IMG/VR virus record: IMGVR_UViG_3300024299_000001
Location: 1-64,000 of that record
Length of the DNA stretch: 64,000 nt
Source of the DNA: a virus
Reading direction: 5' to 3' (one strand)
Shown piece after piece: positions 9,189 through 58,818 of the stretch (its first letter is position 1; each line of letters opens with the position of its first letter). The position numbers and the translations under genes were made by a program. A model generated the notes under the pieces. That model was not told the DNA's origin. It was given only the letters and a program-made list of their open reading frames with translations, and ran no database searches.

Positions 9189-9207
9189 TTGTGACTCCTG
9201 TTAATAA

Positions 9208-9840: not shown

Positions 9841-9956
9841 TTTACTAGCCCTCGCTATTTCCTGTAAAATAAATACGAGGGAAAGAATGTAGGTTGCATC
9901 CCTTTTCGACTTGCATTGTCTATCCCTCATAACTGTATAATTCATATCAGTTTTCC

Positions 9957-10934: not shown

Positions 10935-10976
10935 ACTAACTCCTTTTCGCCCGATCCCCGGCGTCGGTAGTCACCC

Positions 10977-13064: not shown

Positions 13065-13077
13065 AATAAGTCACCTT

Positions 13078-13299: not shown

Positions 13300-13311
13300 T
13301 ACTCTTCTCCC

Positions 13312-14766: not shown

Positions 14767-14769
14767 ATC

Positions 14770-39846: not shown

Positions 39847-40077
39847 CTACTTGATCCGCCGGTTCTTCTCTTTGGCCATTACGGCAAGGTTACCGAGAGA
39901 GCTATTCTTGACATTACGATCTTTATGATGAACATCCTTGCCATCGCCTTTTCGGACCTTACCTTTTCGTGCCATCATACGACGTGCTTTGTTACGCAGA
40001 GCACGTCGTTTTATTTCTTTTTTCTTTCCGTGATATAATTCATATTCTCGCTTGTAGTTTCGTTTCTTAGGCATCAC
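39847..40077 (-). CDS. Small, very basic protein with HNH-like KGDGKDVHHKD...N motif
   Basis: 76 aa. The motif is KGDGKDVHHKDRNVKNSSLGNLAVMAKEKN. Confidence 0.5.
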   Translation of the reverse strand: MMPKKRNYKREYELYHGKKKEIKRRALRNKARRMMARKGKVRKGDGKDVHHKDRNVKNSSLGNLAVMAKEKNRRIK

Positions 40078-40625
40078 GTCTCTCCTTGCTGAATGATAAA
40101 TCCACCAGCAGCTTGAATTAAGTTAACACATAATGTAGGATGAACAGTCCAAGGTCTCACAGTACTCCACTTCAGTGCTTTGACGATAGGAGTAATAAGT
40201 TCCTCTGAGCAGAAAGTTTTCTCTGGGTCTTCTTTGATGAATTTGTATCTAAAGTTGACAATACCGGCCCAGTCGTATTCTTTCTTATCTTCACATGACT
40301 TAACATAATGCGCTAAGCAGTACTCCCAGTCAAGTCTTGACATATTAAGTGCCCATATCTCATAAGGTGTTCCTGAAGTGTGGTCGTGCATGTCATTGTA
40401 GTCCATCCAGGATTTTATACGACCGCTATGCGGCCACTGCTCCATTAAGTTCATCTGATCAAGCTTTATCTTGGTTGCTCGTTCTTCGCCGATAAGAGTC
40501 TTGATATATAGACGTTCTGCGTCATCAATATAAACTGCGCTGTGTGAGTAAGGTCCTGTCTGATTCTGAATAACTTTTGATATAGTTGATAATCCGTAGA
40601 AGTGTGCTGATTTCAGTGTGATCAT
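40074..40625 (-). CDS. Permuted papain-fold (YiiX/C92-like) amidase; candidate endolysin
   Basis: YSHSAVYID ... YDWAGIVNFRYKF...FCSEELI shows a His-then-Cys order typical of the permuted family. It sits next to small TM proteins. Confidence 0.5.
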   Translation of the reverse strand: MITLKSAHFYGLSTISKVIQNQTGPYSHSAVYIDDAERLYIKTLIGEERATKIKLDQMNLMEQWPHSGRIKSWMDYNDMHDHTSGTPYEIWALNMSRLDWEYCLAHYVKSCEDKKEYDWAGIVNFRYKFIKEDPEKTFCSEELITPIVKALKWSTVRPWTVHPTLCVNLIQAAGGFIIQQGET

Positions 40626-40780
40626 TTCTTAGCGTCCTTTACTTTATCAAATAAACTTAACAGCAGATCAAAGTCACCAGAATATGCTGCAGCAATAATA
40701 AGTGTTACTAATATTAATGTGATACAACCCATAGCCCATCTCTTTGTCGCTGGTTCCCAGTCTTTAATCCACTTAATCAT
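40622..40780 (-). CDS. Small TM protein (52 aa; hand-called); holin or spanin candidate
   Basis: MIKWIKDWEPATKRWAMGCITLILVTLIIAAAY.... GGAG lies 6 nt upstream, and there is an ATGA overlap with the amidase start. Confidence 0.45.
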   Translation of the reverse strand: MIKWIKDWEPATKRWAMGCITLILVTLIIAAAYSGDFDLLLSLFDKVKDAKK

Positions 40781-40782
40781 AA

Positions 40783-41229
40783 TTAACTCCGTTCTACATA
40801 GAAGGGATCACTAAATGCAGTCACAGTGACCTCTCTTAAAGGATTTACTTTATATACGCCTTCCCACTTAAACACATACTCCCCTGGTTCTGCTGAACTC
40901 GGAATCTTAAGTTTGACTTTCATTTTTCTCTTACCTACAGGTATATTTCCGTATATAGGAGAGTACGTAATAATGAAGTCGTTGATAAGCTGTTTGTTTA
41001 TCACAGCCGCCAAGGGTAATTTTTTATCTACATCCATTTCATACACCAAGTATTGTCCAGGCTGTACAACTCGATCTGAGTTACAAATCTTTATATTGTT
41101 AACCACAAATGGATTATAGGGCCAGAATAGCCAGAAGGTTACAATACAATAGCCGCTGATAACAAGAGCTGAGATGCATCTGTGTCTCAGTAGTTTAAAA
41201 CGTGATTTATCTGTTCTACGCTTATTCAT
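40783..41229 (-). CDS. Membrane-anchored protein (lysis cassette member?)
   Basis: 148 aa with an N-terminal TM segment (ISALVISGYCIVTFWLFW). Confidence 0.5.
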   Translation of the reverse strand: MNKRRTDKSRFKLLRHRCISALVISGYCIVTFWLFWPYNPFVVNNIKICNSDRVVQPGQYLVYEMDVDKKLPLAAVINKQLINDFIITYSPIYGNIPVGKRKMKVKLKIPSSAEPGEYVFKWEGVYKVNPLREVTVTAFSDPFYVERS

Positions 41230-41450
41230 GGTATAATTACCTCGCCTCCTGGTTTAGAGTGTTTATGTTTGAAGAGCTTCTTAAGAGTTTCAGTTCGCTC
41301 AACACAAGTATCAACTGTAACTTTACTGTTTAACCTCACCTCTATTTTATCCACGTCTTTATTAAGCTTGATCATCCAACTTTTGACAAAGAACCCAGAT
41401 ATTACAAATAGAAATGAAATCGCGCCCCATAGCATTTGTTCTTTCGTCAT
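41226..41450 (-). CDS. Small TM protein (holin or spanin candidate)
   Basis: 74 aa containing WGAISFLFVISGFFV. Confidence 0.5.
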   Translation of the reverse strand: MTKEQMLWGAISFLFVISGFFVKSWMIKLNKDVDKIEVRLNSKVTVDTCVERTETLKKLFKHKHSKPGGEVIIP

Positions 41451-41693: not shown

Positions 41694-41963
41694 TTACCTC
41701 AGTACCATCAAAACTAGATTTGGTGTACCAGCAGACGCTTTAGCGTAAAATATAGTCTCACCTTTAGCTTGTGCTATATCTATATTAAAAGTTTGATTTG
41801 CTAAAGTTAAGCCATTTACTGTACCTGCTGTAGTATCAGATATATAAAATGCTGTTCCGTCGTCTACCCAAAAACTAATTGACCCGCAGCTTTGTGAAGC
41901 ACCTAGCGATATAGCAGTGTAGGTACTTGTGTTTAGCGCTGTTACGACCAGAGGTTGAATCAT
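41694..41963 (-). CDS. Small beta-rich structural protein
   Basis: 89 aa. Its ATG overlaps the stop of the giant gene. Confidence 0.5.
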   Translation of the reverse strand: MIQPLVVTALNTSTYTAISLGASQSCGSISFWVDDGTAFYISDTTAGTVNGLTLANQTFNIDIAQAKGETIFYAKASAGTPNLVLMVLR

Positions 41964-44900
41964 AATGTACTCCTTTGTTTTTCGTACTTGTTTGGTTTAA
42001 AAGTTTGCTTCAAATTTCTATTTAGCCATTTGCCAGTTATATAAGGTATCAAGAGCTTGGGCTTAGAAGTATACACTGCATTGTTGTATGCACGTATCTT
42101 GTCTGCTAAGTCCATTAATATTTCTGGGTCTTGCTTATATAGTGGCAAAGTGTAAAATCTGTTGTAGCGTCGTAGTATGTCAGACCGGTCTGCAGTGTAC
42201 TCTCTACGTTCTTGCGTCTCTGACCATTGACGGTCACGGATAGCCGAGAGTCTTGACGGACTGAATGAGAAGAGTCTGAGTATAACTTCATACGGTGTGC
42301 TCTTCAGTGGTGTCGTACCGTGATACACAGGTGCATATGAACCAGTAGTAAGTCCTTCAGTAAACTCTCGTTTACCCTTGATGATATTACCCAGTGCTCT
42401 AGGTGCTAAGTCCTCAAGTCCTTTCTCAGTTTCACCAAATGTGAAGTGCTCGTACGCTTTGGCAAAGTCTGACCATATGGCAAGTGGTGCACCACCAATC
42501 TCTATGACCTTCTTAGGAAATGGACTATTCATCTGGAGTGATCCAGTCATGTCTATTCCAGTTGTTGCACCAATTAAACCTGTACGAGCTATAGTATCTG
42601 ATCCAGTTAAGTCTTCAATAAATTGGTAGAACCTTTCTTCTGGGTCTTCGTGTCCTGGCCACATAGCTTTGATAAGTGTAGTTAACATAGTAGCTGGTAC
42701 TCCAGCCAATAGAGCTGGCGCCATCAGCATATACAGTGGCGCAATAATCTGTTTCTTGTTAAGTCCAAGGTCAAGCATGTTCAGTATGTAGTTGTGCTGA
42801 AACTTCATAAATGTAAAGGGCAAGTCAAGTAGTCGTATCTTCTGGATAACCCAAGGCTTGGCTGCTTTACCATATGTACCATGAGCTTGACTTGATATTT
42901 CTTTGGCATGCTGCAGCAGTTCTTTATGCGCTTTCTCAATCAGCTTGGGGTCTTTAGAAGAGTTCAAGGTAGTGTTAATTCTCTTATACATCTCCTTATC
43001 AGACTGTCTTAGAGCTTTATAAGCAGCAAATATAGTTGTAGCACGATTCACCTTCTCAGTTGCTCCAAACATGACCATAGCGTGTTTTAGAATCTCATTA
43101 AAGACTCTAGAACCTATACCTTGTATTACACGAGCAGCCTCATAGTTGAAATTTGCTTCATCCCAGCCTTGACTTGTTATGTAGTCAAATATCGCCTTAT
43201 CTTCAGCTGATAACGTGCCTGAACCAACCAGACTATGTATACCTAGTTTCTTAGATAAGCCAGCTCTGTATTTTGTATACTGAGTAACACTGTTTGCTAC
43301 ATGCTTTCCAGACTGTGCAAGATTTAAGCCAGTGTAACCAGTAATTGTAGCAGGTACAGCAAGTACCATATTTGTCAAGTTGACTGCTGCTGAACTTACA
43401 CGACCACCTAAGTACATGACGACTGCTAAAGCTTTGAAGTAACCAACAGCTCTGTCAAACCCTGTATCAGGCTTTAAGAAGAACTGCATGTATAAACGTG
43501 TTGCTTTATATAATCCTTTCTGGGTAGTAGGATCAATTGCTTTTTTCTTTACTTCAGTCAAGTAGTCCGTGTACGTGCCTTTCTTGTTAGTCTTCTGCCA
43601 GTCTTTAAATGACGTTTCACGACCTGTAAAAGCTAGGAGCATGTTACGTGTTGTTGTACGACGTGCTTCACCAGCAGCAAGTCGCTGTGCGTAACTTGTA
43701 AAAGCTTTATTCATGTCAGTCTCGAAGCCAGCGTAGTATCTTTTAGATCGCTGTTTACGTGATGTCAGTCTACCTTTTATCTTATACACGTCTGCAATGT
43801 TCTGCGCCATTTGATTGTGTATAGACTGCAGTACTTTAGTATCAGCGTCTTTCTTAACATTTTCTTCTGCGTTCTTAAGTAACGAGTCCATAGATGTTAT
43901 GAGCCCAGGAACATCAAAGATCACATCAGTAGGTGTAGGAGTTACTTTTATACTTACGTCATAACCGAGTGCTTTAAGACGTCTTGCTTCCACACCAACT
44001 GGCATTCTTGTATTAATCAACTGACGTGTCTTATTTACCCAAGGAGAAGACAATACGTTCTGTGGCAGATACCCTGAGTAAGTCTTTGTCACTAACTTAC
44101 CGTTTGAGTGCTCCGCTTTTAGAACATAGGCTTTACTCTGTCGTTCTCTAGGAAAGTAAGTACCTCGTAAGTCGCCTATCCTTGTTATTAACTGGCTAAT
44201 GGCGAGCTGCCGTGTTTTGCCTTTGTCATCTGTATATTGTGCTGTAGGAGCTTTAAGTCCATTCTCTTTGGCACTTGCAACTTGGCGTCTTAGCTCTTCT
44301 GTTAGTAGTGTAAAGCCTCGGTCAGTCAACAAACGTGCTTCTTTCACCATGTCCAGAGATGCTTGATTGAACTTGCGTTTCTTGAGCATCTGCTGCTCGA
44401 ATGATATCATCTTGCGTGTGGCTTCTTCTTCAGTCTTAGCTCTTCCAACAACTTTGTTAGATGGGTTCATCACTAGCCATGTAGTCTTCACCACTTTAGC
44501 GTTCTCAGTCTTTGTCACTGTGCTCTTAGTCTTTACTGAATATCCTCTACCTGTTGCATCTGTCTGCAGTAAGTAGTCATTAGCAATCTTGTAAGCTTTC
44601 TTGTAGCCACTAGTCTTCTTAAGATTCTTAATCAAGTTAGTCCAGTTACCGAGCACGAACTTCTCAATAGTATATTTAAGGTTATCTTCTCGTAATGCAT
44701 GACTCATAACCTTCTTGGCTTGTGCACCACGTCTCAAGTAATACTCAGGAGAGTTAAACAGTAAGCCCATGATACCGATGTTCTGCTCATGTGCTTTCCT
44801 TGTGAAGCCGTCACTTTCATCAAGCTTGTCAGATTCGTCAATCACGTTGTTGAATAGCTTAGCAATCTTAGCACGTAAAGGCACTTTAGAGGTTTCTTGA

Positions 44901-47900
44901 TCTTTCATCACGTCTCTAAAGAGCTTCTCTGCCTCTGCCTTATTGTCACCCAATATCTCGCCATCTAGTTTAGCTTGTTCAGCTTTAGTACGCACCTTAG
45001 CTGCGAGTGGTACTTTATCAGCAGATACGGTGTCGATAAGCTCTTGATTAAACTCAAACGAATTAAATTCTTTACCTGCTTTTGCGTAGTCTTTTATCTT
45101 GGTTGTAGTTAACTTACCACCGCCATATGGTTTAAATAACTTAGTAATAGTTTGTGGAAGATACTCTGTGTACTTCTTTACTATACCATCAACTATTTGA
45201 ATACCTTCAGTTGAGTCATATATCCATTTACCATCAGCATCTTGTCTAAAATTACTAGGCCAACCTTCTATAGCTGCTACATGATAAGGAGTCTTTGCCC
45301 AGATAAGTTTTGTGTGTCCTAGTGCTACGGCTTCCATAACCGCTCGTTTAAGAGCTAACTGAGTAGAATTGTCTTTAAATGGAAGATCGGGCTGTGCTCT
45401 AAGACTTTTTTTAGCTAAGAATGCTGGTTCTATAAGTTTTTCCATAACTTTTGAATCACGAATTATACTTTCTACGTCTTGTACAGAGATAGATTTACGT
45501 ACGTCTCTAGACAATCCACGTATTATATTAATCGCTAAATCTTCTGCGTCTACGTAAATAGCGGGACTATATGGACCAAAAGGACCAAAGAAACGTCCTT
45601 CCACGTGTATTTTAAAGTTTCTTTTTACGTCTTTATCATCTAAGTTTTTCTTCGTTATAGGAATAGTATCGTGCATCTTATTGACTATATAGTTTACATA
45701 ATGTTTAACTTTGGCATTTCCAGGTTCAGTTAACTGCCTTAGTTTAAGCGTATTTTTATCATATGTTTTTTTATCAGTATACCCGTACTTCTTTGCGTCT
45801 TGATGAGTATCAGACTGAATCTCGTGTATATATAATCCGTCACCTATAGAAGATACACGTAAATGTACTACTTCATTTTCTAACCTAAAGTGTTTACCTT
45901 TTTTACTAAGTTCAGTGTCTTTTATAGCTGGAATTTGTATAATTATCTCTTGGTAGTCTTTTAAACCTGTGGCTGTTGGTAAAGTAACATAGTCAGCTTC
46001 AACAGGCGCATTTCTATAAGCATCGCTAAATAAGGCGTCTTGTACCTCAGTTAAGTAACCTTGATCTTGTACAGCGTCTCGAATAATTCGCCAGTCTTCT
46101 ACTAAGTCTTCGTCAGCAAGTAAAAAGTCTTTGCTTTGTTTACTCATTAAGTCAGAGCTAATTGGAGCTAAACTATCTCTAAGAGAATTACTGTCTAAAG
46201 ATGTGTCGTTTAAAACATTAATTAAAAGATGATCCCGTACTTCAGGATATACACCTAAATTGTCTAACTTATCACGAATTATGTCTCTGAATACTATATA
46301 CTTATCATCCACAGCTACAATTAGTGTAGCAAAAGTATAAGACTCGCCTTTATTAAAATCACCATTTATATCTGGATACTCAGTTTCATTAATAGGCTTT
46401 GTTAAAAGTTCATTAACTCTATTAACAGCAGGTCCCGAAAACCCACTAGCTCGTTCAGCTATATAGTCTTCTGGATTTATACCTTCTTCATGTAACTGAT
46501 CAAATAGTGTTATATCGCGACCACCTAGTACAGTCTCATCCATTCTTGCTTTTAGGCCGTACTTAGCTAAGTGGTCCATAACTTGCTGCTTAGTAACTTT
46601 GCCTTTCTGTTTCTGCATCCACTCACGTAAATTAGAAAAGAAGAACTCTTCTTTTACATGAATCGGCATAGACTTGTTTGTCCAAGACTTAAATGTGTTA
46701 AGCCAGTTTTCAGGAGTCGCTTTACCTGGACCCTTAGCTTGTATGAAGTCGTCTTCAAGTCGTGAAGAAAACTTAGGTGCCAACTTAGAAGCTTTAGGTT
46801 TCGTTGGCGGTTTTAAAGGCAGTATATCAGCGTTCTTTCTGTCTTTGGCTTTCTCTAGTACGGTAATATTTCCAGGTGTTGTCATACCACCCTGAGGCTT
46901 AGCTTTATAACCACCAAAAGCGTCATCATATACTTTTGCAAAAGCTATCATGCCAGAAGTTAAAAAATCATATCGTTGTTCTAACTCAGCTTTTAACTTC
47001 GTGTACTCCCTAAATTTAAAAATACCTATTTCAGCTGTTAAAGCTTGCTTAGCATTCCATATTTTCTTTCTAGCTTGTACGTCAGTATCTTCAGCTTTTA
47101 TACCTGTTGCAGCGTCCCAAATTTTAAAAACTTCAGGTCGCATAGCATAATAAACTCGATCAGCTACTTCTACAGGAGTAATTGCAATTCTGTCGTTTAC
47201 CGACGTTTTATCGTAAGCCGACTTTGCAGGGAATTTTATTATTTTAGAAGCTAAGGGAATATCATTACGTTTTTTAACTACAGTTTGATTTAGTATTTTT
47301 TGATCCCATATAACGTAGTTAAAAGTTTTTCTTTCGTATCTTTTATACCGCGTCCAACCATCAATGAAACGTAAACCTGGAATACCAAATTTTTTAAACT
47401 CTAATGACGCAGCTTTATCTGATCCAAGCGCTTTAGATACGGCTCTGTATATATAACTACCTAGAGTATTATTATTTATACGCCGCATGTGAAGCTTGTT
47501 TTTGTATGGCACACTGTTTTTTCTTTGTACACTGTTAATAAGCTTGTGCATCTTTGCTCGTGCCATTGGTTTTTGTTGACCTAATGTTCTATCCCAATGA
47601 AAAAGTTGACTTATAGCAGGCGAAGGCATTTCTAACTTATACAAAGACGCGTCTTTATTAGTTGAGCGCGTAAAGTTTATCTTAGCTTGTTTAAGTTTCC
47701 AAGCATTTATAAGATGCCCTGCTTGATCATATAAAGGCAGTAGCCGTGCATTTTCAAAAGATGCTTGATCACGACGTAAGGCTTCAAGTTCAATATCTAA
47801 ATACCACAAAGCATCTTCATATATTTCTTGTGTGTCGTGTATATGTGTAGTACCATTAAATGCAAATCCTACATATGCAAGTGCTATATCTTCAGCAGTA

Positions 47901-50900
47901 TTAGCGTCAACAAACTGGCCGAATAAAATTTTAGTATTATATGCAGTAGGATTGAACTTAATTTTCTTGCCATTTACTGTTACACCTGTTATATTATACG
48001 CTGGAAACTGAAAATACTTATAGTAGTCTAATCCAGTAGCCTTCATTTGGGCCCCATAAAAACCCCAACCATAAGTTTGTACGCCTGATCCAGTACTCAT
48101 TTTATCTAAACGCGGTCTACCGTGTTTAAATCTTGATTCTTTTTGCCAAGTAACTGGACTGCCATGATATACTCTAGACGCAAGTGGAGCTGAACTTGTT
48201 AGTGTAGTATGTCCAAGCTTATTTCTGAGAATGTTACCGACGATCAAACCCATCTCATATCCAGATAAGTTCTCGGTCATGCCTAACTTACGTTTCAACC
48301 AAGCTTTAAGCTTGAAAACCATCTCTTTATAGAACGGGAGCTTTGTGTTAGCTTCATTCTGGATGTAGTGCATCAGAGTTTCTTCTTCCCATACTTCTGG
48401 TTTACTAGGATACTGTTCCTTTACCCAGTTATGTATATCGAGCAGGACTTTATCTGTCTTGATTCTCTTGGCTGCTGACGCTATGAAGCTGTTATACATT
48501 GCTTTGAATTGCTTGTCTGAAGCCAAAAGTAGATGACCGCCTTCATGGAGTATAACACCCTTGGCTCCACCAGCTCTCACAAGATTCTCAAGCACTAAAT
48601 ATAGCTTGCCTTTCCAGTAAACACCAGCAACTCTGTTCTTTTCACCTTTGGAGTACTTAGGATCGTCAAAGTCAAGTTCCTGAGTTGAGTCATATTCTTC
48701 GAGGTTAAACTCTTTCTTCACTCCATCTGGTAAGTCTTCCTGGTAGTCTACTGCCTCTACTTTTGACAGGGGGTCATCGATACCCATGTCTTGCATATCC
48801 TGCACAACTTGTGACTCTACGCCTCGAATTTTTATTTGTTCAGCTTTAGTTCTTTTAATGACTTTTTTCTTAGGTTTGGAGCCTTTCTTAGCTGGTTTCG
48901 AGCTCTTTTTAGCTTTCTTAGTAGTAGCGCTAGTCTTCTTCTTTTTAGTCGATTTTTGGCTATCTATAGGCTCCGACTTTTCTACTTTTTTCTTAGCTTC
49001 GCTCTGTGATTCAAGCTCGCGTATTTTATCTTCTATTTGTTTAGCAAATTCAGGGTCTTTCTTCTTATACTCAGTCAGCATACCTTTTAATTCAGCTATG
49101 CGCTTGTTAATAGCTTTAACAGATGGAGTACCACCAAAGAACCTATCAATAGCTGCACTCATTTCTTTTTTATCGGTGATAGGAGAAGATTCTTCTTTTT
49201 TAGCTTCGCTCTGTGATTTCTTAAGGTTCATTGTAGCATGCAGACGCTTTACTTTTAAATCATGAATTATCTTTTTTGTATCAGTTATAACGTCTTTATG
49301 TGCGCCACCTTCTTTGGCATGCTTTAATACATACTGCTGCCCGGCTATCTTGGCGTTAATTTTATCTAACTCAGATTGTTCTTTTGATATTACTTTTGTG
49401 TCTTTATTCTTTGGCTTTGGAAGCTTGGTACTCTTCTTTTTTGTCTTTGGCTTTTCTACTTTCGTCTTCTCTTTAGACTTAACCTGGCCTTTCTTATCTT
49501 TTGTAATTGTCTTCTCTTTGAACTTGGGTTTCCAGTCAATTGGTACCCAGCGAACTCTGCCGTCATCAAACTCAGCTCGTTTTATAAAACCTTTTTTCTC
49601 AAGGACTTTAAATGTCTGTGCAGTAACACCAGTTTTAGGACGCTCTTCTTTTTCCATGGCGTCAATGGCTTTTTGATTAAGCCACTTGAAATTACCAACA
49701 ATTTTCTTACCATCCATAATTACAGGATAAGGCTTATAATCGTTTTCATCCAGGAGAGATTCCTGTATTTGACCTAAAGCTAGACGTTGAAATTTACTCA
49801 GAGGCTTTTGCTCGCTTGCTTCAGCAGCGTTAAACGGTGTAAACTCTTTCTCTGTTTCATTCGATTGTACATATGGGCCAACTTTAGTCTTAGTATTTTG
49901 TTTTTTAAGCTGAGCTGAATATACTGTACTTGCAAACTCCGCTTGCATTACTTGTACTTCTTTTTTGTCTTTTGGTAGTCCTGTGTCATTCGTTTTTTTA
50001 TTTACATACGCAGTAAAGCTGGAGTGCTTCTTAGCAAAAGTTAACTTTTGAGCAAGAGACATCTTACCCCATTTTATAGTATCTGGCACAGGTAGTATAG
50101 AGTCTTTGTCTTTTACTTCTTCTGTCTCTTTCTTTAAGCCCTTAGTCTCGACCTTAATACTCTTCATATTAGCTTCGCCACGTAACTCATTCTTCTGAGC
50201 TGCTGAGTATCCTTTCCAGTCTTCTTCTGTTACGTTGGCAAGCTTGATTACTTCAGCATCAGATAGCTTCTTCGGCTTAGGTGTTTTCTTGGGTGCAGCT
50301 TCTGCTTCACCAGTGTCTTCACGTATAACAAAACCACCCTTAACTTGCTGAACTTTAAACTTTTTCTCTGGATCAAGCTTCCGTATCTTAAGAGCACCTT
50401 CTGCTTTTTTCTTTGTTGTATATGGCTTAGTACTACGTGCAGGAAGTAAGTCACTTTCAAGCATGTCACTTAAGTCTTCTTCAGTGATTACTTCTTCTGC
50501 ATCTGTGGTTTCTTCAGTTTCTTCTTCCTCTGTTTCTTCTATTGTTTCTTCTTCAGCATTCTCAGCAAACTGAGTAGTAGTTGGTTCTTGCTGTACTTCG
50601 TCTTGAATACTGTCAGGTACAGATAAGTCTTTTTTAATACCTGACTTAGTTGCTGCTACAAATGCACCAGCACCGCCTATAGCACCACCTGATACACCAG
50701 ATTCTACTATACGTTTTATATTCTCAGGTGTCAGAAACTTCTCATCTGTATTAGCAACAATATTAAGTATTGAACTTACTTCCTGACCAGCTTCCTGTAA
50801 CATTTCTGATGGTATATTTGTAAGCAGTTTTTTAGCAGCACGTTTTAAGTATGACCCAGGCATGCCTTTAGCAATAGCACCTACAAAGTCGTCAACTAAA

Positions 50901-51787
50901 CCGATATTGCCACCTGCGAGTTCCATAAGACCAGAAAGAACGCCAAAACCTAGTGAAGACATAGGAGCGTCTACGCCGTGCTCAGTCAAAAGCTCTCCGT
51001 AATTAAGACCTGCTTCAAGCTGAGATACTGTACCAACCATACCAGCTTTAGTAAGCTTCGCAACAGTTTTACGACCGCTAGCCTTCATATAGCCTTTAAG
51101 TAAGGCTTTTTCGAGTTGTTTCTCAGTAGCCTCTCGTGCAGTTTCTTTTATGACCTTATTTTTGATTTGGTGTGCAACTGCTGCCTTAGCTTTTTCTCTG
51201 ACCATTTTTCTCAAGCCATGTTTTACTACAGAGTATCCGACACCAGCAGATAGAGTTGTACCGATAATTGTTTCAGCTATAATAGGAACTTGGGATGCAA
51301 TTAAACCTTGAAACCAATCTACTCCTGTTCCTATACCTTTTACTTCATCAAGACTCAGAGTAGGATACTGACTTGCTTCGTCTTCGTACTGCGCGTACTT
51401 ATCCATACTAAAATCTTGAACAGCACTACCAGTGTCTTTAACAATGTCTATACCAAGTTTTTCTCCTGCGTACTTTGCTAAAGAACCAAGCACACCACCA
51501 AAGCCAGCCACACCTTGTTTAGTCGTAGCTATACCTTGTTTTAGACCGCGCTCTACATCTCCTAAGCGCAGCTTATTTGCTTCAGCTTGACGCTGTCTTA
51601 AAAGCTGGTGCTGCCAGTCTTCTTCATTAATACCAGACATAGTACGCGCGATTTGACCAAAGGGAACGCCTTGCTCAACAAGTGGTCGAATATCTACACC
51701 TTGATTTACTGCTAGACCTATAGCGATCTCTTGATCTGACATACCTTCTTGTAAGGCCGTCATATAATTTTCAGGAGTAAAGGGCAT
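41960..51787 (-). CDS. Giant (3275 aa) multidomain virion, ejection or polyvalent-type protein
   Basis: Single uninterrupted ORF with an RBS. It has hydrophobic Gly-rich N-terminal segments, an acidic linker and a Lys-rich region of about 550 aa. HEGGH lies at aa 1081 and YHGSP...YGWGFYGA at aa 1207. C-terminal TM helices are present. Confidence 0.85.
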   Translation of the reverse strand: MPFTPENYMTALQEGMSDQEIAIGLAVNQGVDIRPLVEQGVPFGQIARTMSGINEEDWQHQLLRQRQAEANKLRLGDVERGLKQGIATTKQGVAGFGGVLGSLAKYAGEKLGIDIVKDTGSAVQDFSMDKYAQYEDEASQYPTLSLDEVKGIGTGVDWFQGLIASQVPIIAETIIGTTLSAGVGYSVVKHGLRKMVREKAKAAVAHQIKNKVIKETAREATEKQLEKALLKGYMKASGRKTVAKLTKAGMVGTVSQLEAGLNYGELLTEHGVDAPMSSLGFGVLSGLMELAGGNIGLVDDFVGAIAKGMPGSYLKRAAKKLLTNIPSEMLQEAGQEVSSILNIVANTDEKFLTPENIKRIVESGVSGGAIGGAGAFVAATKSGIKKDLSVPDSIQDEVQQEPTTTQFAENAEEETIEETEEEETEETTDAEEVITEEDLSDMLESDLLPARSTKPYTTKKKAEGALKIRKLDPEKKFKVQQVKGGFVIREDTGEAEAAPKKTPKPKKLSDAEVIKLANVTEEDWKGYSAAQKNELRGEANMKSIKVETKGLKKETEEVKDKDSILPVPDTIKWGKMSLAQKLTFAKKHSSFTAYVNKKTNDTGLPKDKKEVQVMQAEFASTVYSAQLKKQNTKTKVGPYVQSNETEKEFTPFNAAEASEQKPLSKFQRLALGQIQESLLDENDYKPYPVIMDGKKIVGNFKWLNQKAIDAMEKEERPKTGVTAQTFKVLEKKGFIKRAEFDDGRVRWVPIDWKPKFKEKTITKDKKGQVKSKEKTKVEKPKTKKKSTKLPKPKNKDTKVISKEQSELDKINAKIAGQQYVLKHAKEGGAHKDVITDTKKIIHDLKVKRLHATMNLKKSQSEAKKEESSPITDKKEMSAAIDRFFGGTPSVKAINKRIAELKGMLTEYKKKDPEFAKQIEDKIRELESQSEAKKKVEKSEPIDSQKSTKKKKTSATTKKAKKSSKPAKKGSKPKKKVIKRTKAEQIKIRGVESQVVQDMQDMGIDDPLSKVEAVDYQEDLPDGVKKEFNLEEYDSTQELDFDDPKYSKGEKNRVAGVYWKGKLYLVLENLVRAGGAKGVILHEGGHLLLASDKQFKAMYNSFIASAAKRIKTDKVLLDIHNWVKEQYPSKPEVWEEETLMHYIQNEANTKLPFYKEMVFKLKAWLKRKLGMTENLSGYEMGLIVGNILRNKLGHTTLTSSAPLASRVYHGSPVTWQKESRFKHGRPRLDKMSTGSGVQTYGWGFYGAQMKATGLDYYKYFQFPAYNITGVTVNGKKIKFNPTAYNTKILFGQFVDANTAEDIALAYVGFAFNGTTHIHDTQEIYEDALWYLDIELEALRRDQASFENARLLPLYDQAGHLINAWKLKQAKINFTRSTNKDASLYKLEMPSPAISQLFHWDRTLGQQKPMARAKMHKLINSVQRKNSVPYKNKLHMRRINNNTLGSYIYRAVSKALGSDKAASLEFKKFGIPGLRFIDGWTRYKRYERKTFNYVIWDQKILNQTVVKKRNDIPLASKIIKFPAKSAYDKTSVNDRIAITPVEVADRVYYAMRPEVFKIWDAATGIKAEDTDVQARKKIWNAKQALTAEIGIFKFREYTKLKAELEQRYDFLTSGMIAFAKVYDDAFGGYKAKPQGGMTTPGNITVLEKAKDRKNADILPLKPPTKPKASKLAPKFSSRLEDDFIQAKGPGKATPENWLNTFKSWTNKSMPIHVKEEFFFSNLREWMQKQKGKVTKQQVMDHLAKYGLKARMDETVLGGRDITLFDQLHEEGINPEDYIAERASGFSGPAVNRVNELLTKPINETEYPDINGDFNKGESYTFATLIVAVDDKYIVFRDIIRDKLDNLGVYPEVRDHLLINVLNDTSLDSNSLRDSLAPISSDLMSKQSKDFLLADEDLVEDWRIIRDAVQDQGYLTEVQDALFSDAYRNAPVEADYVTLPTATGLKDYQEIIIQIPAIKDTELSKKGKHFRLENEVVHLRVSSIGDGLYIHEIQSDTHQDAKKYGYTDKKTYDKNTLKLRQLTEPGNAKVKHYVNYIVNKMHDTIPITKKNLDDKDVKRNFKIHVEGRFFGPFGPYSPAIYVDAEDLAINIIRGLSRDVRKSISVQDVESIIRDSKVMEKLIEPAFLAKKSLRAQPDLPFKDNSTQLALKRAVMEAVALGHTKLIWAKTPYHVAAIEGWPSNFRQDADGKWIYDSTEGIQIVDGIVKKYTEYLPQTITKLFKPYGGGKLTTTKIKDYAKAGKEFNSFEFNQELIDTVSADKVPLAAKVRTKAEQAKLDGEILGDNKAEAEKLFRDVMKDQETSKVPLRAKIAKLFNNVIDESDKLDESDGFTRKAHEQNIGIMGLLFNSPEYYLRRGAQAKKVMSHALREDNLKYTIEKFVLGNWTNLIKNLKKTSGYKKAYKIANDYLLQTDATGRGYSVKTKSTVTKTENAKVVKTTWLVMNPSNKVVGRAKTEEEATRKMISFEQQMLKKRKFNQASLDMVKEARLLTDRGFTLLTEELRRQVASAKENGLKAPTAQYTDDKGKTRQLAISQLITRIGDLRGTYFPRERQSKAYVLKAEHSNGKLVTKTYSGYLPQNVLSSPWVNKTRQLINTRMPVGVEARRLKALGYDVSIKVTPTPTDVIFDVPGLITSMDSLLKNAEENVKKDADTKVLQSIHNQMAQNIADVYKIKGRLTSRKQRSKRYYAGFETDMNKAFTSYAQRLAAGEARRTTTRNMLLAFTGRETSFKDWQKTNKKGTYTDYLTEVKKKAIDPTTQKGLYKATRLYMQFFLKPDTGFDRAVGYFKALAVVMYLGGRVSSAAVNLTNMVLAVPATITGYTGLNLAQSGKHVANSVTQYTKYRAGLSKKLGIHSLVGSGTLSAEDKAIFDYITSQGWDEANFNYEAARVIQGIGSRVFNEILKHAMVMFGATEKVNRATTIFAAYKALRQSDKEMYKRINTTLNSSKDPKLIEKAHKELLQHAKEISSQAHGTYGKAAKPWVIQKIRLLDLPFTFMKFQHNYILNMLDLGLNKKQIIAPLYMLMAPALLAGVPATMLTTLIKAMWPGHEDPEERFYQFIEDLTGSDTIARTGLIGATTGIDMTGSLQMNSPFPKKVIEIGGAPLAIWSDFAKAYEHFTFGETEKGLEDLAPRALGNIIKGKREFTEGLTTGSYAPVYHGTTPLKSTPYEVILRLFSFSPSRLSAIRDRQWSETQERREYTADRSDILRRYNRFYTLPLYKQDPEILMDLADKIRAYNNAVYTSKPKLLIPYITGKWLNRNLKQTFKPNKYEKQRSTL

Positions 51788-51797
51788 ATATCCTCTC

Positions 51798-53402
51798 TTA
51801 TGCTTGTACTGCTTGTGAACGTTCCTGAGCTATTTGAGCGATAGCCAGTTTAATAATCTGGTCTTTCGTGTTCAAAGGCTCTCCTGACTCTTCTTTTGCA
51901 ATAAGTTTTCTAAGCCAATTTTGTATTATAGCCATTCCGCCTTTTTTTAATTCTTCTGCTGTGCTTTGCACGGCAGCTTGTATTTTAGGCGACAACTGTT
52001 GCTGACCTGGCTGACTAGCAGTATTACCTTTTAAGATATTATCAAGCGCTCCGCCAGGTATAGTTTCAGAACTTATAGGGTTGTTTTGCTGTGTAGCTGG
52101 TCCAGTAGGTATTCCAGAAGAATGGAATTTATCAAGAACTGATTTAGCTTTAATTGAAGCTGGGACTGGGTCAGTTAAGTCTTGTATTGTTATGCCATCT
52201 ACTGTCATTGTAGGCGCTGGAGCATTAGTAGGTATCGTGCCAGCGTCTGTAGGTACTGTCCCGCCTGCAAATGCAGGTATACCTGATGTGCTAGTAGGTG
52301 CTTGAGCATTAACTGTAGGTCTTATTGAAGATGGTATCGCACCTCCTGCACTAGCTGGTATACTTGATGTATCAATAGGTGTTTGTTTTACGGGTGTATT
52401 TACTACATGACTTGGTAAAGCTTCTTTAGGAGCTTCTGACTGTGCTTGTATAAGTGCTAATTTCTTTGCAGAGTCTTTAGGAGTTAAAGTTGCAGGCGTA
52501 TCACTTGGATTGTCACCTACTATTTTTGCCACATTTGGATTAGCCATTTTTAAAGCCATTAGTCGTACTGCAACTGGATCAGCTCCGACTTTAAACCAAT
52601 GTCCTTCATTTCCGTTTACTTTTTCTTGTTTACTTTTACCAAATGTTTTAAGACCCATAGATTTTAACATGGTTCTAAATTCTTTTATATCACTTATTTT
52701 TGCGTCTTTAGGACTTAACGGAATATGTATTCTGTAAGAATTTGGACTACCAGCCATACCTGGTACAGTTTCTGTGGGCCAAATTACACCAGTTGCTTTA
52801 GATACATAACCGTTAATCTCATTTATTCGGTTATTAATAACTGAAGTAGCGTACTCTAGTTGATCTTTATTAGACGCATTTAAAGGAGGCGGTGTTTCGC
52901 GTTCTTTTATTTGGGATAGTATATTTAACTTATCTAAATGTGCTTTTGATGCTGCTGTTTTATTAGCTGACTGAGTCTGCACATCTGTTAAGTATGTGGC
53001 TGGACTATTTGTTTTAAGTTTATCTGTATAGTTAGCTATGGCATCTACGTTACCTGTTCGTCTAGCCTCAGTAAGATTTGCCAAAGTCTTAGTTGTTTTA
53101 TTTGCATTCACACGTGACTGACCCTCAAACATATCTCTACCGACTGCCATAGCTGTCTTAACTGCTGCCATTACAACAGGTGCAGGATACCCTTTACTTT
53201 GTAGCGCTTGCAGTACCTTACTCATAACATCTGAGTTAGTTTTTTCTTCATCTGACAAGCCACCTAGCATCTGCAACACATCTTGAGCTGCAGCTGTTAC
53301 TTGATCACGTAGTGTACTAGCTTCTCTTCTATCAGCAAAATTTGCCATTGTAGTAGCAAAACTCGATGCGTTAGTGGATGATTGTGGACTAAAAAATGCC
53401 AT
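51798..53402 (-). CDS. Internal virion or ejection-type protein with Pro/Ala/Thr-rich repeats
   Basis: 534 aa containing IPASAGGAIPSS...GIPAFAGGTVPTDAGTIPTNAPAP. Function comes from context. Confidence 0.55.
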   Translation of the reverse strand: MAFFSPQSSTNASSFATTMANFADRREASTLRDQVTAAAQDVLQMLGGLSDEEKTNSDVMSKVLQALQSKGYPAPVVMAAVKTAMAVGRDMFEGQSRVNANKTTKTLANLTEARRTGNVDAIANYTDKLKTNSPATYLTDVQTQSANKTAASKAHLDKLNILSQIKERETPPPLNASNKDQLEYATSVINNRINEINGYVSKATGVIWPTETVPGMAGSPNSYRIHIPLSPKDAKISDIKEFRTMLKSMGLKTFGKSKQEKVNGNEGHWFKVGADPVAVRLMALKMANPNVAKIVGDNPSDTPATLTPKDSAKKLALIQAQSEAPKEALPSHVVNTPVKQTPIDTSSIPASAGGAIPSSIRPTVNAQAPTSTSGIPAFAGGTVPTDAGTIPTNAPAPTMTVDGITIQDLTDPVPASIKAKSVLDKFHSSGIPTGPATQQNNPISSETIPGGALDNILKGNTASQPGQQQLSPKIQAAVQSTAEELKKGGMAIIQNWLRKLIAKEESGEPLNTKDQIIKLAIAQIAQERSQAVQA

Positions 53403-54855
53403 ATTTTGTCTCCTTGTCTAATCCTGTAATAGCGCCCCATAGGTCAACTAAGCCAGTGCTTGCTTTACCCAGAGATAATATATTGTCAAATAATCCTGGT
53501 TTGTTTGCATCTATTTTTACATTCGCAATGTCTACGTCCTTGTCGATGCCGTACTTCTTGAGTGCAAGTTCTATATTGCCCAAGTTAAGTGTTTCATCCC
53601 GCACACCAGTTGCTCCTAGCAGAGCTAAGTACTGTAGTATGCCTTTAGCAGGTGAACGGTCACTCACAGTTGCGTACTTCTTATCTTCTGCATTGATTGA
53701 GTTGGTCATCTGATTGGCAGCCAGAAGAGCTTGAAGTGCCCCTTCGTCTTTCTTGAACTTAGGAATGTATGAGTAGTCTTTGCCACCTATGTTTACGGTA
53801 GTAGGAGTATACGCACCTGTGCCAGTAGCTAAGTTCTTTTCAAGGCCTTGTAGAACTGCGTTGTTCTTATTCGTAGCTGTGTCAATTGCAGTGCCGTAAC
53901 CCTCAGCTTCTGTCTTCTTGAAGTTCGCATCATTCTTAATTGCTTCTTCTGCTTCAGCAGTAAACTTATCTATATAAGTATCCCACATAGACATTGGATC
54001 ACTTGGGTCACTTGTTGTGCCTGTTGTATCAGCTGTCACGAGATTTCCGTCCTTATCCAAAGATAGCTTACCTAAGGTGTCTAACCCTCCTGGTGTATTT
54101 GTGTTCAGTCCGTTATTTTTTGATACTCTTGAATTGTTAAGGTAGTCTTTAAGCCATTTGGGAGTACCAACCTCTCTTGCTTTATCCCAGGCCCCTGAAC
54201 CTGTGTTCCAGTTTTGAACAAGGGTATCTACTTGTTGGTTGTAATCTTGGAGGTCTTTACCACCAGCAGGAGGAGGCCCCATCACTACTTGAGCCATGAT
54301 CTTGTCAGCCTCTTTCTGTGGCAGCGTTCCATCTAAGGCACTCTGAATTTTTGCGTCATTCAAAACAGACTTCATGTATGTTAATTTATCTGGTCGACTG
54401 TCTTGATCTAACGCACTCCACGCAGCACTTACCTCAGCAAGAATCTCATTGCCAGTCTTTTCACCATAGTTAGCAAGTATAGCGTCATTTGCTGCTTTAA
54501 TAGTCTTCATGTTATTAAAACTATCAATTAGTAATGAAAGCTTACTTAAGCCCCACTTAGCAGATTTCTTAAACATCTTTTTACCAAGACTAGATAGAAG
54601 TGCTAGCTGAGCTTCAATAGCTTGGTTCTTCTCAAAGTCATTGATATATTTAGCAGCTGCATTTGGGTCACCTTCAAACGCTGGAACACTTCCCATAATA
54701 CTAGCCATCTGAGACGCTCCAAAGCCAACAGGAGGACCACTACCAGAGCCACCTCCAACGTTGCCACCATCTGACGCACCGCCTTGAGGACCGTCAACTC
54801 CAGGGCCATAAGAGTTAATCAGCCAATGGAGTTTCTTTGAGTTATTAAAAATCAT
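53389..54855 (-). CDS. Internal virion or ejection-type protein (Gly-rich N-terminus)
   Basis: 488-aa ORF. Function comes from context. Confidence 0.55.
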   Translation of the reverse strand: MIFNNSKKLHWLINSYGPGVDGPQGGASDGGNVGGGSGSGPPVGFGASQMASIMGSVPAFEGDPNAAAKYINDFEKNQAIEAQLALLSSLGKKMFKKSAKWGLSKLSLLIDSFNNMKTIKAANDAILANYGEKTGNEILAEVSAAWSALDQDSRPDKLTYMKSVLNDAKIQSALDGTLPQKEADKIMAQVVMGPPPAGGKDLQDYNQQVDTLVQNWNTGSGAWDKAREVGTPKWLKDYLNNSRVSKNNGLNTNTPGGLDTLGKLSLDKDGNLVTADTTGTTSDPSDPMSMWDTYIDKFTAEAEEAIKNDANFKKTEAEGYGTAIDTATNKNNAVLQGLEKNLATGTGAYTPTTVNIGGKDYSYIPKFKKDEGALQALLAANQMTNSINAEDKKYATVSDRSPAKGILQYLALLGATGVRDETLNLGNIELALKKYGIDKDVDIANVKIDANKPGLFDNILSLGKASTGLVDLWGAITGLDKETKYGIF

Positions 54856-54867
54856 ACGATGCTCCTT

Positions 54868-55950
54868 TTAATTTCCGTAAATATCTTTTGATAAAGCTGT
54901 TAGCATTAATTCTAAAGGTAGTAAAAATTGTGTAGCAGTCTGTGCGTTTGTATTGAGTGCCTGTGACATAAGTTCTGGAATCTTCATCTTCAGTTCTGCG
55001 CCTTTCATGACCGCATCACTTGACTTGCTTGCTACGTCAGTTGCTATCTTACTCAAAGCTGAACTCATAGTGTCTGATGTTATACTAGACTTGAGCATAT
55101 TCTTGGTTGCCATTTCATCAAGCACACTCTGACTGACACCCTTGATCATGTTACGACCTTCTGATCGCGCACCTTGTTGTGCTGCAGCGATGTACTTATC
55201 TATATCGTCATTTAGACCAGTTATTTTAGTTTGTAAAGCTGTGTTAAGAGCTGAGTTATCAAACGTATTACTATCGATATAGCCTTGTATTTGTTCTATA
55301 ATTCCTGCGAATGGTGACTGTTGTCCGGTGTTGGGGTCTACTCCTGGATCGGGCCCTGGTGAAGGCTTCCCTGGGTCAAGGTGTATTTTCATGTTAGCCT
55401 TTAAAGTATCATATGGTATACCTGTAAGGTTCGCCATGTCGATATAAGATGCACCTGTTGTGTTCATATACGCAGAAATAAACTCATTTTTATCGGGAGC
55501 CGCATCATAAAGTTTTGTGAACCCTGCCTGGTCATTGGTGAAAAATTCAGTGCCTTGCTGAGTTGTTGTGTTGCCACCTGACACTCGGTTCACTGCATTA
55601 ATCAAGTCCTGTTTAGAGGCTCCGTATGTGCCTAAGTCTTGGTAAACTTGAGTAGGAGTGGCAGTTTTAATATAGTCTGATACATCGTTTTCAGTGCCTG
55701 ACCATGTGCCTATTGTTACAGGTTTTGATGGTTCAGGTGCTTTTGGCAACACACCATAATCTATAAAGGAATCCGCTTGAGATGCTGTATAATCAGAACC
55801 AGGGTTAAGGTCATTTATAATATTCGACAATGTAGCACCTGATACACCGTATTTAATTGCATCACTTCTAATTTGGCCCGGTGTATTTCCAGCGAAATAA
55901 GACTTTAAATCGTCTGCTGTATAGTCCGTCCCACCTATATTATATGCCAT
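54868..55950 (-). CDS. Virion-associated protein with three N-terminal repeats of about 40 aa
   Basis: 360 aa. The repeated pattern is D..(S/Y)Y....TP.Q...D....G.S...L.N.VN. Confidence 0.55.
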   Translation of the reverse strand: MAYNIGGTDYTADDLKSYFAGNTPGQIRSDAIKYGVSGATLSNIINDLNPGSDYTASQADSFIDYGVLPKAPEPSKPVTIGTWSGTENDVSDYIKTATPTQVYQDLGTYGASKQDLINAVNRVSGGNTTTQQGTEFFTNDQAGFTKLYDAAPDKNEFISAYMNTTGASYIDMANLTGIPYDTLKANMKIHLDPGKPSPGPDPGVDPNTGQQSPFAGIIEQIQGYIDSNTFDNSALNTALQTKITGLNDDIDKYIAAAQQGARSEGRNMIKGVSQSVLDEMATKNMLKSSITSDTMSSALSKIATDVASKSSDAVMKGAELKMKIPELMSQALNTNAQTATQFLLPLELMLTALSKDIYGN

Positions 55951-56170: not shown

Positions 56171-56533
56171 TCACAATGTTCTCCTTGTGTTTTGGTGCAC
56201 TTGTATATGAAAATGTAAAACTCCGGTTTTTGTTTTATGTAATAAAGCTACTCTCATAGTTGGTCTCTCATAGTCATATACCCAGTTATCGTTAATCCAA
56301 CGCTCTATTTCTTTTGGTTCTAAATAAACCCATTCTGTTAAGTCTATCGCTCTTACTGGTCGTACGCCGTGTAGATCGTTTCTGTGCATCTTTGGTCTGT
56401 ATGACTCTGACATTCTGAGTCCAAACTTATCAGCTATAGCGCATATAATATTAACCAAAAGAGGCTCATAATTATACTCCATTAGACCACGTAGAACACT
56501 AGTATCTTTTATTACTATTTTGCCTGGTTTCAT
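56171..56533 (-). CDS. Possible peptidase-M15-like cell-wall hydrolase
   Basis: 120 aa. DLHGVRPVRAIDL and GVLHFHIQVH loosely resemble the H..G.A.D and H.H zinc ligand blocks. Confidence 0.35.
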   Translation of the reverse strand: MKPGKIVIKDTSVLRGLMEYNYEPLLVNIICAIADKFGLRMSESYRPKMHRNDLHGVRPVRAIDLTEWVYLEPKEIERWINDNWVYDYERPTMRVALLHKTKTGVLHFHIQVHQNTRRTL

Positions 56534-58496: not shown

Positions 58497-58818
58497 GTTA
58501 AACCTCCGGCGTCCAACCATTAGTTGTAATAAGCCAATCATCTGCTGTGTAGTATTGAAAGACCGCTATATCTCCGGCGGTTGACAAGTTCGTTAGGTTC
58601 TTACCTTCAGCGTTTGTTGTGCCATCCATTAAGTATCCGTCAGCAGCGTTTGTATCAACGATAACTTCTATTGCTCCGAGTGTTATAATGGTGAAGTTCA
58701 TTCCTGCTACCATTAGCGGGAGTTGACAAGTGCCGGTTACGTTACAAACAAACGTACCACCGTAAAGATTAGCTCCGGTAAAGTTCGCTGCGAAATTTGC
58801 TGCTGAGTCTGTGACTGG
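58473..58818. repeat. Conserved arm 1, copy B
   Basis: Partner of 2955..3300. Confidence 0.85.

Follow-up and report, generated by a model that had tools for sequence, protein, structure and literature searches.

The 64,000-nt window analysed here (positions 1 to 64,000 of IMG/VR virus record IMGVR_UViG_3300024299_000001) carries on its minus strand, at 41960–51787, a single complete open reading frame (ORF) for a giant protein of 3275 aa without one cysteine. The giant is a divergent member of the phage polyvalent proteins and represents a "YFPRER" sub-branch of the PLxRFG-tailed giants. It is best read as a polyvalent effector that is probably packed in the capsid and expelled through the tail together with the DNA. 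A preliminary description of the window, made from its letters and ORF translations, had proposed a polyvalent architecture with enzymatic modules; this is borne out by an invariant HExxH...E signature, a fold resembling that of the ADP-ribosyltransferase (ART) family ART-PolyVal, and modules that are shuffled in relatives. The individual genes and modules given with window coordinates below are all on the same minus strand.

The polyvalent proteins, described from phages and conjugative elements by Iyer, Burroughs, Anand, de Souza and Aravind (2017, J Bacteriol; PMC5512222), combine zincin, ART-type and uncharacterised modules, are encoded among late or virion genes, and are subject to shuffling. 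The giant has the same traits. One ORF joins a zincin-type module, an ART-like fold and further conserved modules; it is a phage gene, lying between tail-fibre-like genes and a lysis-like cassette in a window that also encodes an N4-type virion RNA polymerase (vRNAP), a portal, a major capsid protein (MCP) and TerL; and its shuffled domains recur in varied architectures. Unlike the described members, it has no module that reaches the Pfam MPTase-PolyVal, ART-PolyVal or LPD models, and the N-terminal module, a Lys-rich spacer and a segment called here module 3, together about half of the protein, are without a described counterpart. The picture of the polyvalent proteins is not changed but extended, to a new lineage and a divergent subfamily.

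The reading frame opens with an ATG at 51787 and runs uninterrupted for 3275 codons, its stop codon being at 41960–41962. A Shine-Dalgarno sequence (GAGAGGA) is found 5 nt before the ATG, and the preceding gene ends 10 nt away. Because gene prediction gives an identical product on 13 independent JGI metagenome contigs of up to 97,263 bp, the concern that the ORF might be split by frameshifts or stem from misassembly is settled, and the single-ORF claim of the preliminary description stands. The same phage is found on an IMG/VR contig at 99% identity. An artefact, whether a chimeric assembly or separate genes fused through sequencing errors, has only the unusual length in its favour and is already refuted, with a probability of practically nil: the 13 contigs come from different samples, the C-terminal 1600 aa are entirely collinear with the metagenomic relative P0001, and giant ORFs (1336 to >4372 aa) are the norm in this family. 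The gene has no megablast match among 50,697 phage records, and a scan of its operon for promoters and terminators found nothing exceeding chance. The motifs listed in the preliminary description (the linker, SQSEAKK, HEGGH, YHGSP, YGWGFYGA and both hydrophobic strings) are all at the residues given there.

Module layout and exchange among relatives

From N- to C-terminus, the giant consists of a Gly/Ala-rich N-terminal region, an acidic linker, a Lys-rich spacer, a zincin-like module, an ART-PolyVal-like module, module 3, and a helical C-terminal module. Searches with the whole protein against Pfam, PHROGs and PDB sequences were empty, as was a word-indexed homology search with aa 981–1700; the same kind of search with the C-terminal module returned two fragments only, and a scan of bacterial genomes two short contigs of metagenome-assembled genomes only. 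The modules were mapped from an exhaustive HMMER search with aa 1000–2199, which gave 1963 relatives, the best 150 of which were realigned to the full protein. The preliminary statement that most of the length could not be assigned to any family holds for roughly half of it.

The segment at aa ~1201–1515 (47243–48187), which contains YHGSP (aa 1207) and YGWGFYGA (aa 1239), shows an ART-PolyVal-like fold in profile, Foldseek and AlphaFold comparisons, checks of the kind that the preliminary description had proposed. About 130 relatives of this YHGS module were found, many of them stand-alone proteins of 300–450 aa. Within an alignment of 36 sequences (A1), H1208 and Y1244 are invariant and align with the strand-1 His and strand-2 Tyr of ART-PolyVal, as part of the signature HG[ST]P...GRPRLDK.GTGEGAQAYG.GFY.A; LYKLDIPD...LDWD.PLSEQ; GIPGL.Y.D..SR...TRNYV.WDQ. 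The AlphaFold2 (AF2) model has a core with a predicted local distance difference test score (pLDDT) >90 and a variable, low-confidence helical insert at aa ~1265–1365. Compared by hhalign with genuine Pfam ART-PolyVal segments, the module matches at 87% (P = 3.9e-6) and is collinear over ~170 columns. Foldseek against BFVD gave 25 matches at E ≤ 1e-3 (best 8.5e-15), led by "ART-PolyVal-like" proteins, with template-modelling (TM) scores of 0.52–0.64 for short PolyVal ARTs. Against the PDB nothing significant was found, either with the model in Foldseek (best E = 0.5; 9 of the top 30 entries were exotoxin A or diphtheria-toxin-type ARTs) or in a profile search with the alignment.

In P0007 and P0076 a Pfam ART-PolyVal domain adjoins the YHGS-homologous segment and does not overlay it; in relatives the YHGS segment often follows such a domain directly. 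The YHGS module has a predicted ART-like fold but is a sequence family separate from ART-PolyVal. Like the H-Y-D/E ARTs (PF18760, Tox-ART-HYD2 and, distantly, exotoxin A and diphtheria toxin), it has a His (in YHGS) and a Tyr (in GFY) with ~36-residue spacing; it differs from them in forming its own family, in its ~100-aa helical insert, and in having Pro at the Asp position. Five residues that are invariant or nearly so in A1 (D1399, Q1405, N1490, D1495, and Q1496) are kept in the window copy, and because these and the H1208–Y1244 pair are retained the module is plausibly, on sequence grounds, an active enzyme. A short G-L-L-(D/x) peptide with a P-rich stretch after it opens many of the stand-alone relatives and closes some of them; it may be a targeting or processing signal.

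Immediately upstream, aa ~1040–1200 (48188–48670) form a zincin-like, metallopeptidase (MPTase)-type module. HEGGH is at aa 1081–1085, within ILHEGGHLL (from aa 1079), and a conserved Glu is found in EEETLMHY, near aa 1136. Twenty-five relatives were identified. Across a 23-sequence alignment (A3), the sole invariant residues are the H, E and H of HExxH and the Glu ~55 residues downstream, and a conserved strand, G-x-Y-x-x-G-K-x-Y-L, precedes the HExxH. A strand, an HExxH helix and a downstream Glu make up the zincin layout described by Iyer et al. (PMC5512222). A collinear arrangement of strand, HExxH and Glu helix was also recovered by hhalign in the metallopeptidase region of N4 gp50 (aa 2130–2448), where the match is weak (P = 1.5e-4, probability 52%); no paralogy could be detected between the module and the HExxH site of the vRNAP encoded in the window. 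A zincin fold is probable, and its conserved residues would predict peptidase activity. In a tblastn search of the phage database, the N-terminal half of the giant has a single match (aa 989–1255, E = 9e-8, 23% identity), to a hypothetical protein encoded by the archaeal virus MetMV of Methanosarcina (MK170447.1, 38110–38865), and the HExxH module may span the divide between bacterial and archaeal viruses.

The C-terminal module (aa ~2290–3275, ~950 aa; 41963–44920) is mostly alpha-helical, with a pLDDT of 75 in the AF2 model. It is a distant relative of the PLxRFG domain. NCBIfam model NF032893 ("tail-700", PLxRFG) matches aa 2657–3238 over profile positions 87–645 of 681, with E = 2e-19 and 69.5 bits against a cut-off of 100. 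The giant of Klebsiella phage vB_KpnP_ZX1 (ZX1) is a bona fide PLxRFG protein (683 bits against NF032893), and the profile of the window's family matches its C-terminus with hmmsearch at E = 8e-32 and with hhalign at 99.8% over 717 columns. An invariant G-T-Y-F-P-R-E-R motif at aa 2542–2549 (44141–44164) is the counterpart of Y-F-P-L-x-R-F-G: the ZX1 sequence GPYFPLARFG aligns with G-T-Y-F-P-R-E-R-Q-S of the window subfamily, in which Y-F-P and an Arg are retained and the eponymous P-L-x-R-F-G is absent. About 15 giants match the module at E values of 1e-160 to 1e-267, always at their C-terminus. A scan of IMG/VR placed it on 74 viral contigs, mostly of 40–65 kb, and in 51 of the 51 giant ORFs checked (1336 to >4372 aa) it ends the protein, within ~30 residues of the stop codon except in two, where the distance is ~120. 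This invariable placement suggests a targeting role.

The preliminary description had counted two clear transmembrane helices in this region. One of them, at aa 3014–3039 (...PALLAGVPA...; 42671–42748), is transmembrane-like by the threshold used (Kyte-Doolittle, 19-residue window, ≥1.6); all 17 aligned members keep this segment hydrophobic, and it has a small-residue motif, P-A-x-L-A-G-A-G-A-S. The other, at aa 2786, is below this threshold and, with its conserved polar and charged residues, is a core element instead.

Similar modules are found in the PLxRFG giants of the Lastavirus phages ZX1, LASTA and SJM3 and of Serratia phage Parlo, which likewise have a helical module of ~700–950 aa at the extreme C-terminus of a Cys-free protein of >3000 aa, whose gene closes the virion module and directly precedes the lysis genes. 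The window giant differs from them in its YFPRER motif, in its entirely different upstream modules, in having no methylase, helicase or transglycosylase hints, and in that its host phage has an N4-type vRNAP. These relatives raise the question of whether the giant could be an antirestriction protein like DarB of phage P1, shielding the incoming DNA by methylation or helicase action. The tblastn matches of its C-terminal third are indeed to genes labelled "DarB-like antirestriction" in Parlo and LASTA, and its genomic position is that of Bcep22 gp75. Only the C-terminal module resembles these genes, a module with no part in P1 DarB chemistry, and neither Pfam, NCBIfam nor PHROGs gave a methyltransferase or helicase signal in the giant, whereas Bcep22 gp75 has methylase and helicase signals and the ZX1 giant hints of them. 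Because the giant has neither the N6-adenine methyltransferase nor the helicase that as a pair define DarB-type proteins, the "DarB-like" label is inapplicable to it, and a DarB-like function is most unlikely.

Outside the C-terminal module, the family is variable. The ~15 giant relatives that share the module have different or reordered modules upstream of it, and module order and copy number vary among ~20 relatives. In P0017, module 3 comes before the HExxH module. P0001 (4601 aa) is collinear with the window giant from aa 1666 onward only, at 37% identity, and has an HATPase_c domain in its N-terminal half. Pfam domains found in 15 family members include ART-PolyVal, GGDEF, HATPase_c, InPase, cytidine deaminase and LPD23; a mix of GGDEF, InPase, HATPase, deaminase, ART and LPD domains is the repertoire of the polyvalent proteins (PMC5512222).

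Module 3 (aa ~1650–2260; 45008–46840) is found in 5–10 giants. Its invariant features in alignment A5 are R...E-x-Q-S-D-x-H (IHEIQSDTHQ, aa ~1990) and LPFK...LKR; no match was found in Pfam or in the PDB, including by profile search. P0001 has three tandem copies, at residues 1915–3580, a triplication not usual among enzyme domains, which may point to binding or scaffolding.

The N-terminal module comprises aa ~50–400 (50588–51640). Gly and Ala together make up 21–25% of residues across aa 1–350. With phmmer and tblastn the module matches P0033 (aa 60–337), L034 (366 aa at 37% identity) and L047, and in each of these ORFs the match is close to the N-terminus. Neither Pfam nor PHROGs has a family for it, and it is unrelated to the N-termini of the ZX1 and Bcep22 giants. 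Neither it nor module 3 exceeded 4% in hhalign comparisons with N4 gp50–53, T7 gp14–16 and Bcep22 gp67, gp70 and gp74. An acidic linker, EEETIEETEEEETEETTDAEE (aa 412–432; 50492–50554), leads into the low-complexity spacer (aa 441–1000, 560 aa; 48788–50467), in which Lys accounts for 21.6% of residues and Lys plus Arg for 24%, against 14% for Asp plus Glu. The repeated SQSEAKK is at aa 858 and 927. The search for homologues of the spacer gave none besides a low-complexity match to Bcep22 gp75.

Gene order, cysteine depletion and the case for ejection

The minus-strand block that contains the giant begins with the vRNAP and continues with three tail-fibre-like genes, among them one that encodes a Gly_rich_2 domain; then come a gene of 120 aa, those of 360, 488 and 534 aa, the giant, an 89-aa ORF, and the lysis-like cassette. 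The same order of tail fibres, virion proteins, giant and lysis genes is annotated in Bcep22, in JC1 (PMC9144972), and in Klebsiella phage ZX1. In purified JC1 virions, the Bcep22-type giant gp69 was detected with 51 unique peptides, together with the proteins of 332 and 510 aa encoded just upstream of it (PMC9144972). The window's portal is closest (22–25% identity) to those of Bcep22 and DC1 (Lessievirus), Ralstonia phages, Lastavirus and PBC5, and its head genes do not resemble those of N4. A giant gene is found at the equivalent position in Lastavirus and in the Bcep22-like and Ralstonia phages.

The giants of Bcep22 and JC1 (gp75 and gp69) resemble that of the window in several respects. 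They follow tail fibres and Cys-free virion proteins of ~330 and ~530 aa, in phages with a related portal, and they are themselves very large and Cys-free, with Lys-rich low-complexity stretches. They differ from it in a C-terminus that is not of the PLxRFG type and in their SNF2-helicase and methylase modules, and detectable homology to it is confined to low-complexity sequence.

The three genes just upstream of the giant (534, 488 and 360 aa; 51798–55950) encode Cys-free proteins rich in Ala, Gly, Ser, Thr, Asn and Gln. None has a PHROGs or Pfam family, and none exceeded 4% by hhalign against N4 gp50–53, T7 gp14–16 or Bcep22 gp67, gp70 and gp74. Their sizes and order resemble those of Bcep22 gp70 and gp74, which precede gp75, and they are candidate internal-virion or ejection proteins.

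The vRNAP gene heads the block, 7.6 kb upstream of the giant's gene, and runs off the right end of the window. The part within it (59375–63988) encodes the C-terminal 1537 aa, with no Cys and a match to phrog_2206 at E = 7e-226; on the full contig the protein is 3603 aa. It is ~27% identical to Schitoviridae vRNAPs, and a scan for it found the same phage only.

Absence of cysteine is common to this group of proteins and to others known or suspected to exit the capsid by way of the tail, whereas Cys makes up 0.8–1.3% of the remaining proteome in each phage. The giant, the three upstream proteins and the vRNAP fragment have none in 6194 residues, against 1.27% in the other ORFs of the window (P ~3e-35). 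N4 gp50, gp51 and gp52 have none in 4294 residues, against 0.84% elsewhere in N4. T7 gp15 and gp16 have none and gp14 has one, against 1.25% elsewhere in T7. Bcep22 gp75, gp74, gp70 and gp68 are also Cys-free, as are the ZX1 giant and its two upstream genes and all 12 of the vRNAP C-terminal domains compared, taken from diverse Schitoviridae; the giant's own relatives are nearly so. A review of ejection proteins (PMC8954989) does not mention cysteine, and a literature search found no paper linking its absence to ejection. The N4 vRNAP is a beads-on-a-string chain of loosely connected domains when ejected and refolds in the host (PMC13434306). We infer that the Cys-free state reflects passage, unfolded, through the tail and the oxidising periplasm.

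Synteny, the mass spectrometry (MS) of a mosaic relative, and the Cys-free trait together argue for virion packaging and ejection of the giant. The "ejection-protein position" of the preliminary description is supported in this indirect sense, by a gene order mirroring that of the Bcep22-like phages and Lastavirus, by the detection of JC1 gp69, and by composition. The comparison drawn there with T7 gp16 and the N4 giant protein needs a correction: no homology to T7 gp16 or to N4 gp50, gp51 or gp52 is detectable. The likeness to N4 gp50, and to T7 gp14–16 and N4 gp51–52, is one of kind: these are also very large, Cys-free multi-domain proteins, and they are packaged and leave by way of a short tail. 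An HExxH zincin domain of similar layout is a further feature of N4 gp50. The giant differs from gp50 in having no RNA polymerase domain, its phage having a separate vRNAP gene.

The same observations could be read in terms of a structural ejectosome or core component of the T7 gp16 or N4 gp51 kind, which would build a trans-envelope conduit and in which the enzyme-like modules would be accessory or degenerate. The conserved C-terminal hydrophobic helix and the Gly/Ala-rich amphipathic segments of the N-terminus would suit such a role, and the gene follows low-complexity genes resembling those of internal proteins; T7 gp15 and gp16 and N4 gp51 and gp52 share the lack of Cys. In addition, homologues of N4 gp51 or gp52 were not recognised beside the vRNAP in the window, so that some other protein must form the channel. 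On the other side, the giant has a single transmembrane-like segment, no profile similarity to known ejectosome proteins, and no lytic transglycosylase domain detectable with Pfam or NCBIfam, and its upstream modules are freely shuffled among relatives. Since these modules are shuffled, duplicated and replaced, the pattern fits cargo and not a machine part, and the ejectosome explanation is considered unlikely.

It is also conceivable that the giant is a late protein that is never packaged, acting in host takeover or superinfection exclusion. Polyvalent-type domains also occur in non-packaged contexts (PMC5512222). This explanation is at odds with the location in a late block running from tail-fibre-like genes to a lysis-like cassette, with the Cys depletion common to the adjacent vRNAP and to proven ejected proteins, and with a conserved module that is strictly C-terminal in 51 of 51 cases, and has a low probability, below that of an ejectosome component.

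Several results weigh against the interpretation of the giant as an ejected polyvalent effector. Neither the giant nor any bona fide PLxRFG-type protein is directly evidenced in virions, and the giant verified by MS, that of Bcep22 and JC1, is without the PLxRFG module. A search for the C-terminal module in Bcep22 gp75 was negative by NF032893, by hmmsearch and by hhalign (0.1%); gp75 is tied to the window giant only through the ZX1 giant, with which it has N-terminal and middle modules in common at 36–58% identity. A kinship of the C-terminal module with the encapsidation domain of the N4 vRNAP was considered and rejected, an hhalign value of 38% with a single sequence falling to 3.2% with a 12-sequence profile; with this match set aside, hhalign put all of the giant's modules at ≤3% against N4 gp50–53 and T7 gp14–16. 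Foldseek with the C-terminal model found no fold match in the PDB (best E = 2.2), and because the model matches no solved fold the role of this module is a guess. Cys depletion is not fully specific, since scaffold-like and some capsid proteins are also Cys-free. The HExxH module has no Pfam match in the giant or in 15 relatives and no PDB match, including by profile search. Pfam ART-PolyVal (PF18760) matches neither the giant, at E up to 1, nor four stand-alone relatives of the YHGS module. Finally, the Asp of the ART-PolyVal "GYDG" aligns with "GIPG" in the YHGS module, its position being occupied by Pro, and catalysis could for this reason differ or be absent; D1399 and D1495 may, from their conservation, substitute for the catalytic Asp/Glu of strand 5.

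If the giant is an ejected polyvalent effector, a sequence of events can be proposed. It would be packed late in infection as a beads-on-a-string polypeptide and expelled into the next host with the DNA. The C-terminal module would be a constant "chassis" for incorporation into the procapsid, for anchoring at the cell envelope, or both; it contains one conserved, glycine-zipper-like hydrophobic helix. The zincin module might cut the polyprotein, in the head or after delivery, as has been proposed for polyvalent MPTases. The ART-like domain might modify a host target using NAD+, with its strand-1 His, strand-2 Tyr and conserved Asp, Gln and Asn residues, and the polylysine-like spacer of 560 aa could bind or neutralise DNA, or be an extended linker able to thread the tail. 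Two giants would be injected, an N4-type vRNAP that starts transcription and a polyvalent giant that conditions the host or counters its defences. The two would then take up ~21% of the phage's ~97-kb genome, and protease-like and ADP-ribosyltransferase-like activities would reach the host at the first moment of infection.

A broader possibility, put forward tentatively and with somewhat less than even confidence, is that short-tailed phages in general use the PLxRFG-type module as a chassis for capsid loading and ejection, one that accepts any effector cassette, that this uncultured marine phage loads two giants (~3300–3600 aa) into one capsid by way of two unrelated targeting modules, and that total absence of Cys is a simple and general predictor of proteins that exit through the tail. 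If the chassis reading is correct, it would amount to a natural modular platform for protein injection. The family, with at least 74 viral contigs, a constant C-terminus and exchangeable upstream modules, is a test bed for capsid targeting and tail threading of giant proteins; module 3 and the distinct ART-like family are uncharacterised candidate counter-defence enzymes; and the Cys-free signature could flag ejected proteins in the genomes of uncultured phages. Newly documented here are the C-terminal rule at 51 loci, the separate ART-like family, the repeatable module 3, the Cys-free signature, and the co-occurrence of an N4-type vRNAP with a Bcep22/Lastavirus-like head.

Other genes of the phage

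The phage as a whole (window segments 632–15279, 16000–39300 and 40074–64000) is a mosaic of an N4-type vRNAP, a Bcep22/Lastavirus-like head, and T7-like replication. The replication module includes a primase-helicase, Pol A, a gp2.5-like single-stranded DNA-binding protein, an exonuclease and a ligase. A ThyX-like protein, a dCMP deaminase and an SNF2 helicase are also encoded.

The neighbours of the giant's relatives were searched by tblastn and jackhmmer at the 74 viral loci, where the 10-kb flanks are mostly taken up by the giant genes, so that absence of a vRNAP from them is uninformative. The only recurrent neighbour is the 89-aa downstream ORF (41694–41963), whose start overlaps the stop of the giant (ATGA) and which has AAGGAG upstream. 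Homologues of this ORF, which has no known family, are found directly after the giant in two of its closest relatives, L034 and L004. It is translationally coupled to the giant through the ATGA, and could be a dedicated partner or chaperone.

Beyond it, at 39847–41450, are genes of 74, 148 and 52 aa, each with one transmembrane-like segment, together with one of 183 aa and one of 75 aa whose product is very basic, being extremely rich in Lys and Arg. No family was matched for any of them; the layout resembles that of a lysis cassette, with holin and spanin-like genes and an endolysin. At 39979–40009 a GC-rich hairpin, perfect over 14 bp and with a T-run behind it, lies between the convergent plus- and minus-strand gene blocks and is probably a bidirectional terminator.

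Three further observations concern genes of the structural blocks. A 245-aa gene with 15 Cys (9208–9945), flanked by portal/scaffold-like genes and by that for the major capsid protein, has matches to endonuclease VII, HNH and Lar-like families. A nuclease is unusual at such a site, and the gene may be a homing-type insertion. A domain of ~113 aa is common to a 284-aa gene beside the vRNAP (58498–59352) and a 439-aa gene in the other structural block (2979–4298). One segment of viral contig L026 is matched by both, at 62–64% identity, which suggests exchangeable tail-fibre tips. Ahead of the three Cys-free genes, the gene of 120 aa (56171–56533) has no Pfam match and contains H-x(9)-D and H-F-H motifs (LHGVRPVRAID ... 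LHFHIQV). These motifs resemble small zinc D,D- or L,D-peptidases and are only a lead toward a possible virion-associated cell-wall hydrolase.

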